From Escherichia coli (GTDB taxonomy: Bacteria > Pseudomonadota > Gammaproteobacteria > Enterobacterales > Enterobacteriaceae): DNA of 64,000 bases. Made by a program: the position numbers and the translations under genes. Positions 44,214-45,887 of the stretch are shown here, piece after piece. The notes under the pieces were generated by a model that was not told the DNA's origin, did no database searches, and saw only the letters and a list, made by a program, of their open reading frames with translations. Location of the stretch: assembly GCF_016026235.1 (NCBI RefSeq), contig NZ_CP065613.1. One strand, given 5' to 3'. The first letter of the stretch is position 1, and every line of letters starts with the position of its first letter.

Positions 44214-45887
44214 TTACCACCAGACTTCCGCCTGGATGCCGGCCATAAACTCGTCTTTGCTGTTCTCATTAAACTTAAAATTCGATAATTCGTTATCCAG
44301 AATATTGATATACGTTCCATAGAAGCGAATTTCTGGTCGTGAACCTAAAATGCTTTCACCCACTTTCAATGCATGCCAGAGTGTCGTTTTATAAGCCGAT
44401 TCATTTAGTGTTACACCCTGCTGAGTTTTGTTCTGTTGCTTAAACCAGCCTAATTCAAGCCCCGTCTGATTCCATGTATTCCAGATCCAGGCCGGTCTTA
44501 TTACAGTGCGAATACTGTCAAAATCACTATGAGCACCACTTTCATAACTATAAACATCTTCGCCGTGAGAATAGACAAGCGCGTTAGCCATAATAATATT
44601 GTCAGTAAGATACATCTCGCCCTGAGAGATTAAACGCCAGGCGATCCCATTGGTATGATCACCATAGTAATAGCGACCATGCGCCATCGTATTACTGGCA
44701 TCTGAGAAACTGGCAAAACTGCTGGCATAGGAATTATTGGCAACCTGTAACGTAAATTCATTAAACGTATCGCGTTGCAGGTTTTGCCGTAAAACAGAAG
44801 TCAGCATCCAGCTATCTTTCATTTCAAAATAACTGTTGTCATTTTCGTTATCTTGTTGTTGATCCGTTTTATTAGGTGCGGAATATTTAGCCATTAATGA
44901 TAATGTCGCATCATCCCATAACGGGATATTGCGATAACGAACATCCACAGAATTGGTATTCATCTGGCTGGTACGCGAAAAATCACGAGAGTAAACATCG
45001 ACATCATCACGGCTTAAGGACATATCAAACAGCCCTACACCAAGTGCCCAGTTTTCAATCCCCACACCCGCGGCGACATCCGTGGTTAAGGTTTTCCAGT
45101 CCAGCATCTGGATCTCATATTGCGGGAGTTTATGTTTGCCGACCCAGAAGTCTGCCTCTGGTGCGAAGGGTAAAAAACCTCGCGTTGTCAGGTAAATATC
45201 GCTGAACTGCATGATATTTTCATTGGCACTGTCACCAAACCTGGCATCGTTATACTGCTCACCCACGTTGCCATCATAGGTAACGACCGCATTTGCCGTT
45301 TTACCGTCCTGATTATAAACACGCTGATTTAAGGTCAGGTCAAACCAACCGCTCATCTCATTACCAAAACGTCCCAGAGAACCCGCTGCATAAGTTTGTG
45401 GTGAGCCGTGATTACCAGTACCCCAGCCTGAGCGGAAGTACCCCTGATAGCTGAACCCAATATCATCCTTTATATATTTACTGATATCTTTCAGGGTCAC
45501 GCTTTCGATAGTGGTTTTGTCGCCTTTACTTTCAATAACGGCAACTTGCTGCGATCCATTTATAGTATGCGCTGCGGTAAACGAGTTCTGTTCACCGTTT
45601 TCATTTTTGATGTTATCAGCGACGGGAGATGTCGCTGATATTTCAGCAAGCGAGGCTGATTTATATTTGTTTTCCGTGATGCTTTTTTGTAAGGTCGAAA
45701 GTCGGGATTTATATACTCCCAGTTCATTCTGTGTTGCTTTCAGCTCTTGTTTATTTTGCGACAATTCATTTTCAAGCAATTCAAGGCGCTGCTCTATGGT
45801 TAATTTTGTTGCCATCGCGTTCAATGGAAACAATGCTGTAATAATAGAAAAAGACAAAAGGCTGACGTTAAGCGTCTTTATATTCAT
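44214..45887 (-). CDS. LamB-like carbohydrate-specific outer-membrane porin with N-terminal coiled-coil extension
   Basis: 557 aa; signal peptide, heptad-like [42 protein letters not shown], beta-rich body ending in aromatic ...AEVWW. Confidence 0.7.

Follow-up and report, generated by a model that had tools for sequence, protein, structure and literature searches.

A LamB-family carbohydrate porin with a predicted periplasmic coiled-coil extension in a β-glucoside operon of Escherichia coli

The porin gene and its product

We examined a 64,000-nucleotide stretch of an Escherichia coli genome (contig NZ_CP065613.1 of RefSeq assembly GCF_016026235.1), hereafter the window, around a gene that an earlier, sequence-only reading had described as a sugar porin at positions 44214 to 45887. 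An open reading frame (ORF) for 557 amino acids, including a signal peptide, occupies exactly this interval. It lies on the minus strand, which the earlier reading had left unstated, and the plus-strand translation of the same interval contains many stops. The ORF starts with ATG, preceded by an AAGGA Shine-Dalgarno sequence 7 nt upstream, and its product ends in ...AEVWW. RefSeq lists the protein as a "carbohydrate porin" (WP_038339754.1). The gene comes fourth in a run of five genes with the same orientation, which encode in order the IIB, IIC and IIA proteins of a phosphotransferase system (PTS), the porin and a glycoside hydrolase family 1 (GH1) enzyme, with a GntR-type regulator gene divergently oriented upstream (Table 1).

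The porin is built, from its N-terminus, of a signal peptide (residues 1-26), a long helix (31-74), a disordered linker, a second short helix (132-143) and a β-barrel (145-557). The signal peptide, read by eye, has K4, a hydrophobic core from residue 6 to 22, and A24-M25-A26 preceding the predicted cleavage before T27. The Pfam LamB family (PF02264) matches residues 147-557 over positions 1-378 of its 378-position model (276.9 bits, E=6.5e-82), and Sugarporin_N (PF11471, "Maltoporin periplasmic N-terminal extension") matches residues 30-56 with 31.5 bits against a cut-off of 25.7. The sequence-only reading had suggested comparing the protein with the LamB and OprB families; in a Pfam scan of the full porin, LamB was significant and OprB gave no match at E<=0.01. 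Its assignment to the LamB-type sugar porins holds, on the strength of the LamB match and of the fold matches described below.

Against PDB sequences, single-sequence phmmer found no matches for either the full porin or its isolated barrel, even when E values up to 10 were allowed, and a profile built from 37 family sequences recovered maltoporin (1e-110) and ScrY. We read the phmmer result as a limit of sensitivity, because a pairwise BLASTP comparison of the porin with ScrY gives 4e-13, and it is a caution for reading null results from single-sequence searches.

Table 1. Features of the porin gene, its operon and the surrounding island (positions in the window)
Feature	Position	Strand	Basis
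Porin gene	44214..45887	-	ORF; 100% DNA identity to annotated RefSeq coding sequence; Pfam LamB and Sugarporin_N
Predicted signal peptide, residues 1-26	45810..45887	-	Read from sequence; aligns with BglH and ScrY signal regions
Predicted coiled-coil helix, residues 31-74	45666..45797	-	AlphaFold2 helix; heptad register and shuffle test; conserved core; PF11471
Candidate trimerisation motif R34-L35-E36-L37-L38-E39	45771..45788	-	Arg(g)-h(a)-x-x-h(d)-Glu(e), in register with the heptads
Variable linker, residues 75-131 (~57 aa)	45495..45665	-	AlphaFold2 predicted local distance difference test (pLDDT) <50 for 76-131/132
Pre-barrel helix, residues 132-143	45459..45494	-	AlphaFold2 helix inside conserved block 129-146
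LamB-type β-barrel, residues 147-557, ending in aromatic W-W	44217..45449	-	Pfam; AlphaFold2; Foldseek; PDB profile search
Stem-loop UUUCCUCCAG(U)-loop-(G)CUGGAGGAAA	45912..45939	-	Terminator-like match in scan; folding; covariation
PTS lactose/cellobiose-family EIIA	45943..46254	-	Pfam PTS_IIA E=5.5e-32; length equal to CFT073 annotation
PTS lactose/cellobiose-family EIIC	46282..47604	-	Pfam PTS_EIIC; NCBIfam TIGR00410 331 bits vs 236 cut-off
PTS lactose/cellobiose-family EIIB, operon gene 1	47718..48029	-	Pfam PTS_IIB E=5.7e-19
6-Phospho-β-glucosidase (GH1), last operon gene	42750..44189	-	NCBIfam NF007154 1037 bits vs 624; Pfam Glyco_hydro_1
Divergent GntR/UTRA (HutC-type) regulator (presumed BgcR)	48228..48926	+	Pfam GntR and UTRA
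6,285-bp six-gene island	42696..48980	.	BLAST of K-12 junction; K-12 and CFT073 annotations; GC content 39-46%

The predicted N-terminal coiled coil

Behind the signal peptide, the sequence-only reading had seen a charged, heptad-patterned helix of about 45 residues, quoting a peptide that corresponds to residues 28-69, and this description stands up well. The a positions of the heptads are L35, L42, L49, L56, L63 and I70 and the d positions I31, L38, N45, T52, Y59 and L66, a register that runs unbroken over six heptads. Only 4 of 500 shuffles of the porin equalled the crude heptad score of the segment. Its core positions are essentially unchanged in the orthologues from Citrobacter, Salmonella and Kluyvera, in which the segment as a whole is 60-65% identical. 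AlphaFold2, run with a 37-sequence alignment, predicts the N-terminal segment not as disordered but as one continuous helix of 44 residues, with block pLDDT values of 76-88.

The most conserved part of this helix is R34-L35-E36-L37-L38-E39, which matches the R-hxxhE motif exactly. This motif has been described as specifying parallel three-stranded coiled coils, and it also occurs in some dimers (PMC3653964, PMC6173795). In the porin it fits the same register as was derived independently from the heptads. BglH, ScrY and 119 of 120 close orthologues carry it, as do, by eye, four more distant relatives with an extension; it appears in 0.6% of shuffled extensions, and all 27 extension-free relatives, K-12 LamB among them, are without it. 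Together with the presence of Sugarporin_N in the porin, BglH and ScrY, this distribution bears out the earlier view that the extension is of the ScrY type and not that of a plain maltoporin. By analogy with ScrY, the helices of three subunits would most likely form one parallel trimeric coiled coil.

Linker and pre-barrel helix

Two parts that were absent from the sequence-only account separate the coil from the barrel. The linker is the least conserved region of the protein, with 39-54% identity among orthologues, 15% to BglH, and a length that varies. The short helix that follows falls within an 18-residue block, residues 129-146 (45450-45503, minus strand), which across the BglH/BgcH clade is about as conserved as the barrel, despite the fast-evolving linker before it. 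Identity over this block is 78-94% among orthologues, 72% to BglH and 44-61% to distant relatives. AlphaFold2 confidence for the helix is moderate, with block means of 52-76.

The barrel and its lining

In the AlphaFold2 model, the barrel has pLDDT values mostly above 90. The top five Foldseek matches to the model are maltoporin and ScrY structures (1MPR, 1MAL, 1OH2, 1A0T), with E values from 4.5e-26 to 1.3e-16 and template modelling (TM) scores, normalised to the target, of 0.76-0.79. The barrel is presumably 18-stranded and trimeric. Four of the six greasy-slide positions of LamB are aromatic in the porin (Y150, W181, F375 and W556) in a four-way alignment, in which the equivalents of LamB R8, R33 and D116 are invariant. 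Together with the changes at LamB W358 and Y118 given below, these aligned residues would fit a sugar channel with a specificity other than that of LamB.

Relation to BglH, ScrY and LamB

The closest of the three known porins is BglH (YieC), encoded by the cryptic bgl operon of K-12, which is 53% identical to the porin over 541 residues, its whole length. Both proteins have a signal peptide, a coil, a variable linker, a helix of the pattern (T)LKD(I/F)SK(Y/F)(I/V)KD(D/E)IGFS and a LamB barrel in the same order, and both coils have LT(V/I)EQRLELLE, which includes the R-hxxhE motif. Both genes lie in a β-glucoside PTS operon beside a gene for a GH1 phospho-β-glucosidase. BglH differs in that its heptads break after about L49, giving three to four heptads against six, so that the coil of the porin is about twice as long; the BglH linker is also about 20 residues shorter. 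The bgl operon has the BglG antiterminator and a single IIBCA permease; the operon described here relies instead on a GntR regulator and on IIB, IIC and IIA proteins of the lactose/cellobiose family that are encoded separately. As far as sequence comparison goes, the porin is a BglH paralogue and not a maltoporin.

ScrY, the sucrose porin of the pUR400-type scr regulon (PDB 1A0S, 1A0T, 1OH2), shares with the porin the LamB barrel and a Sugarporin_N domain containing R-L-x-x-L-E, and its barrel fold matches the porin model with a target TM score of 0.79. Sugarporin_N scores are 40.7 bits for ScrY and 45.6 bits for BglH, both of which also carry the LamB domain. In contrast to BglH, ScrY is only 23% identical to the porin and has no long disordered linker, its helix-prone region running almost to the barrel; its pre-barrel block is only 22% identical to that of the porin. 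Its substrate and its constriction residues also differ. The ScrY sequence compared here comes from a plasmid scr regulon, the query having matched plasmid genes at 100%. Two plasmid matches labelled "maltoporin" were considered as ScrY and rejected, one lying in a galactan-utilisation cluster and the other being a truncated gene beside blaCTX-M-14.

LamB has the same barrel family and fold, and the porin has conserved four of its six greasy-slide positions along with key residues of the ionic tracks. Unlike the porin, LamB has no N-terminal extension; it is part of the mal regulon and supplies an ATP-binding cassette (ABC) transporter rather than a PTS.

A probable bgc island

The six genes form an island between marB and eamA that K-12 lacks; in its place, the K-12 spacer has 38 bp that hold a GC-rich hairpin. 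An identical six-gene island is present in CFT073, also between marB and eamA. Of 5426 complete E. coli genomes, 2553 carry the porin gene. The gene content of the island recalls the bgc operon known from septicaemic and uropathogenic E. coli, reportedly described by Neelakanta, Sankar and Schnetz in 2009, in which we take the porin gene, presumably under the name bgcH, to be the one that completes the set of five. The bgc operon has been characterised as a five-gene operon with IIB, IIA, IIC and a phospho-β-glucosidase, together with the GntR-type BgcR, that allows use of cellobiose, arbutin and salicin (PMC3585215, PMC4488073). A secondary source on bgc lists BgcF as IIA and BgcI as IIC, which is out of step with the gene order, and we hence name the genes by function. 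In CFT073, a six-gene "cellobiose PTS" set has been described as c1955-c1960 (PMC2831201). In gene content and order as read from the DNA, the island matches the published bgc operon, and no difference was detected.

In the window, all six island ORFs are full length, and the copy is apparently intact. Disrupted copies were seen in other strains: FDAARGOS_943 has an IS1 within the IIC gene, lacks the GntR regulator gene and has a truncated eamA; DETEC-P169 has an IS1 inside the porin gene; and the IIC gene of E2865 is frameshifted. The same cassette lies between other flanking genes in Citrobacter, Salmonella and Enterobacter. Because its flanking genes differ in these other genera, the cassette seems to have moved horizontally as a unit, as this pattern suggests. 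Scans for promoters and terminators gave counts no higher than in shuffled sequence, and we do not propose any promoters. Elsewhere in the window, a plus-strand ORF of 371 amino acids at 38249-39364, named "putative protein YneK" in RefSeq and without a Pfam match, is intact, as it is in FDAARGOS_943; it is truncated in CFT073 and frameshifted in E2865.

Porin genes in PTS operons

The sequence-only reading had placed the porin inside a PTS operon and had called this an uncommon coupling. The location is right, and the rarity is not. In K-12, bglH lies in the bglG-F-B-H operon, and scrY lies in scrK-Y-A-B-R between the kinase gene scrK and the gene for the sucrose PTS IIBC protein. A relative at 56% identity is encoded downstream of an antiterminator, an IIBCA permease and a GH1 enzyme, and another at 45% identity downstream of a BglG-type antiterminator, IIB and IICA. 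The cassette described here, with GntR followed by IIB, IIC, IIA, porin and GH1, recurs in Citrobacter, Salmonella and Enterobacter, and only one distant relative among those examined stands alone. A location in a PTS operon is thus the usual arrangement for ScrY/BglH-type porins.

Kluyvera-type loci show a variant arrangement, in which GntR, IIB, IIC and porin genes are followed by a gene for a HAD/S6PP-like hydrolase in place of IIA and GH1. The porin encoded there is 76% identical to the one in the window, and its N-terminus scores below the Sugarporin_N threshold.

A stem-loop ahead of the porin gene

The IIA gene stops at 45943 and the porin gene starts at 45887; a stem-loop of 10-11 bp, with a free energy of -20.4 kcal/mol (z=-3.0), lies in the 55-nt spacer that separates them. 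Ahead of the porin gene it recurs in seven different sequences, which come from five genera (E. coli, Citrobacter, Salmonella, Enterobacter and Kluyvera); in Kluyvera, the gene upstream of it is that for IIC. In this small sample of seven sequences, 98.6% of the stem-loop cells are paired, against 33-60% in slid controls, four of the ten stem pairs show compensatory changes and the loop varies in length. Its 5' arm looks like an anti-Shine-Dalgarno sequence and its 3' arm like a Shine-Dalgarno sequence. No Rfam family matches the stem-loop or any other part of the region from 42000 to 49000. The element may act as a partial terminator, in the processing or stabilisation of mRNA, or in translational control.

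Inverted repeats of 11 bp, unrelated in sequence, are present at the equivalent site in the K-12 bglB-bglH spacer (6258-6283 of that locus) and, in another relative, downstream of the GH1 gene (6767-6806 of its locus). Operons of this kind may thus repeatedly have a hairpin ahead of the porin gene.

Function and alternative explanations

The protein is very probably the outer-membrane channel of the cryptic bgc β-glucoside system, a presumably trimeric barrel of the LamB/ScrY type with, most likely, a trimeric coil in the periplasm. This reading builds on its domain architecture and fold, its homology to BglH and ScrY, the heptads and trimer motif, the operon content and the genomic position. 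After export and removal of the signal peptide, the C-terminal 411 residues would form the barrel, and cellobiose and aryl-β-glucosides (arbutin and salicin, for example) would diffuse across the outer membrane along the aromatic greasy slide. The co-encoded EIIB, EIIC and EIIA proteins would take up and phosphorylate these β-glucosides, the GH1 6-phospho-β-glucosidase would then cleave the phosphorylated sugars, and the divergent GntR-type regulator would control the operon. In the periplasm, the 44-residue helices of three subunits would zip into a parallel three-stranded coil, as reported for ScrY, joined to the barrel via the flexible linker of about 57 residues and the short conserved helix. 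The coil of ScrY has been described in the literature as trimeric and stabilising, with a guiding role also attributed to it, and that of the porin may likewise stabilise the trimer and modulate or extend the path of the sugar.

Several points weigh against this picture. The AlphaFold2 run was of a monomer, which cannot show a coiled coil; we infer trimerisation rather than assert it, because a monomer model proves no trimer and the motif is not fully specific. With the long disordered linker of the model, the coil may also lie off the trimer axis, on which the ScrY coil is assumed to sit. In the channel, two greasy-slide positions are not aromatic (L514 stands in for LamB W358 and, in a loop where the alignment is poor, D214 for W74), and K265 takes the place of the LamB constriction residue Y118, a difference that goes with a specificity unlike that of LamB. 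The bgc assignment follows from a secondary description and from matching gene content. Trimer formation and substrate range are inferred, the second from the bgc and BglH literature, and the role of the coil is taken from work on ScrY. Moreover, the operon has been described as cryptic and is disrupted in several strains, and the porin may rarely be made.

A different role for the N-terminal arm would be that of a tether or docking device, extending to a periplasmic protein, to the peptidoglycan or as far as the PTS permease of the inner membrane, and either anchoring the porin or handing on sugars instead of only stabilising the trimer, as the sequence-only reading had in part proposed. The linker, long and predicted to be disordered, would give the arm a long reach and make this geometrically possible; the core of the coil has been conserved, the linker has not; one paper mentions the suggestion that such coils guide toward an inner-membrane component; and the porin is co-encoded with a PTS permease in bgl, scr and related loci. 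We nevertheless consider such docking unlikely. Pfam finds no peptidoglycan-binding or known partner-binding domain in the porin, with only Sugarporin_N above threshold in the N-terminal module and an insignificant TolA_bind_tri match (E=0.16), the island encodes no candidate periplasmic partner, and the reach is not conserved, the coil and linker of BglH being shorter and the linker of ScrY different. Rather improbable, in our view, is that the module acts as a gate or plug on the periplasmic side, with the pre-barrel helix as its active element. The segment that leads into strand 1 matches the barrel in conservation, which would suit such a role. Deletion of the ScrY extension is reported to make the channel behave more like LamB. 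The Vibrio chitoporin VhChiP has a documented N-terminal plug (PMC10406626), but that protein belongs to a different porin family and its plug is a 19-residue segment rather than a coiled coil, and the AlphaFold2 confidence for the pre-barrel helix is, as noted, only moderate.

That the protein is simply a maltoporin, a LamB orthologue, is almost certainly wrong. Some sources label its orthologues "maltoporin", its barrel matches the LamB family of Pfam, and solved maltoporins are among its top fold matches. Against this, identity to the solved maltoporin structures in the fold search is 23-24%, far from the identity to BglH, and the N-terminal extension and the β-glucoside PTS operon set the porin apart from LamB and the mal regulon. 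We rejected LamB orthology because the scores fall far below the equivalog cut-offs of the NCBIfam maltoporin models (205.2 bits against 394 for NF006860, and 118.8 bits against 765 for NF009061).

We can also imagine, as a long shot, that the BglH/BgcH clade has a three-part periplasmic module, made of a coil with a trimer motif, a tether of about 57 residues and a conserved pre-barrel helix, whose coil docks on the PTS permease or the cell wall to relay sugar from the outer to the inner membrane, with the hairpin setting the ratio of porin to permease. If this were true, the tethered coil could span much of the periplasm and form a physical sugar relay between the two membranes.

Implications

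The observation of a porin with a predicted coiled-coil arm is real but ordinary: thousands of genomes carry an annotation for the protein, the genetics of the operon have been worked out, and the extension has a Pfam family of its own, which derives from well-studied porins. Across the whole porin subfamily, the role of the periplasmic coil is only loosely defined. The comparison of loci also corrects the idea that the coupling of such a porin to a PTS operon is unusual.

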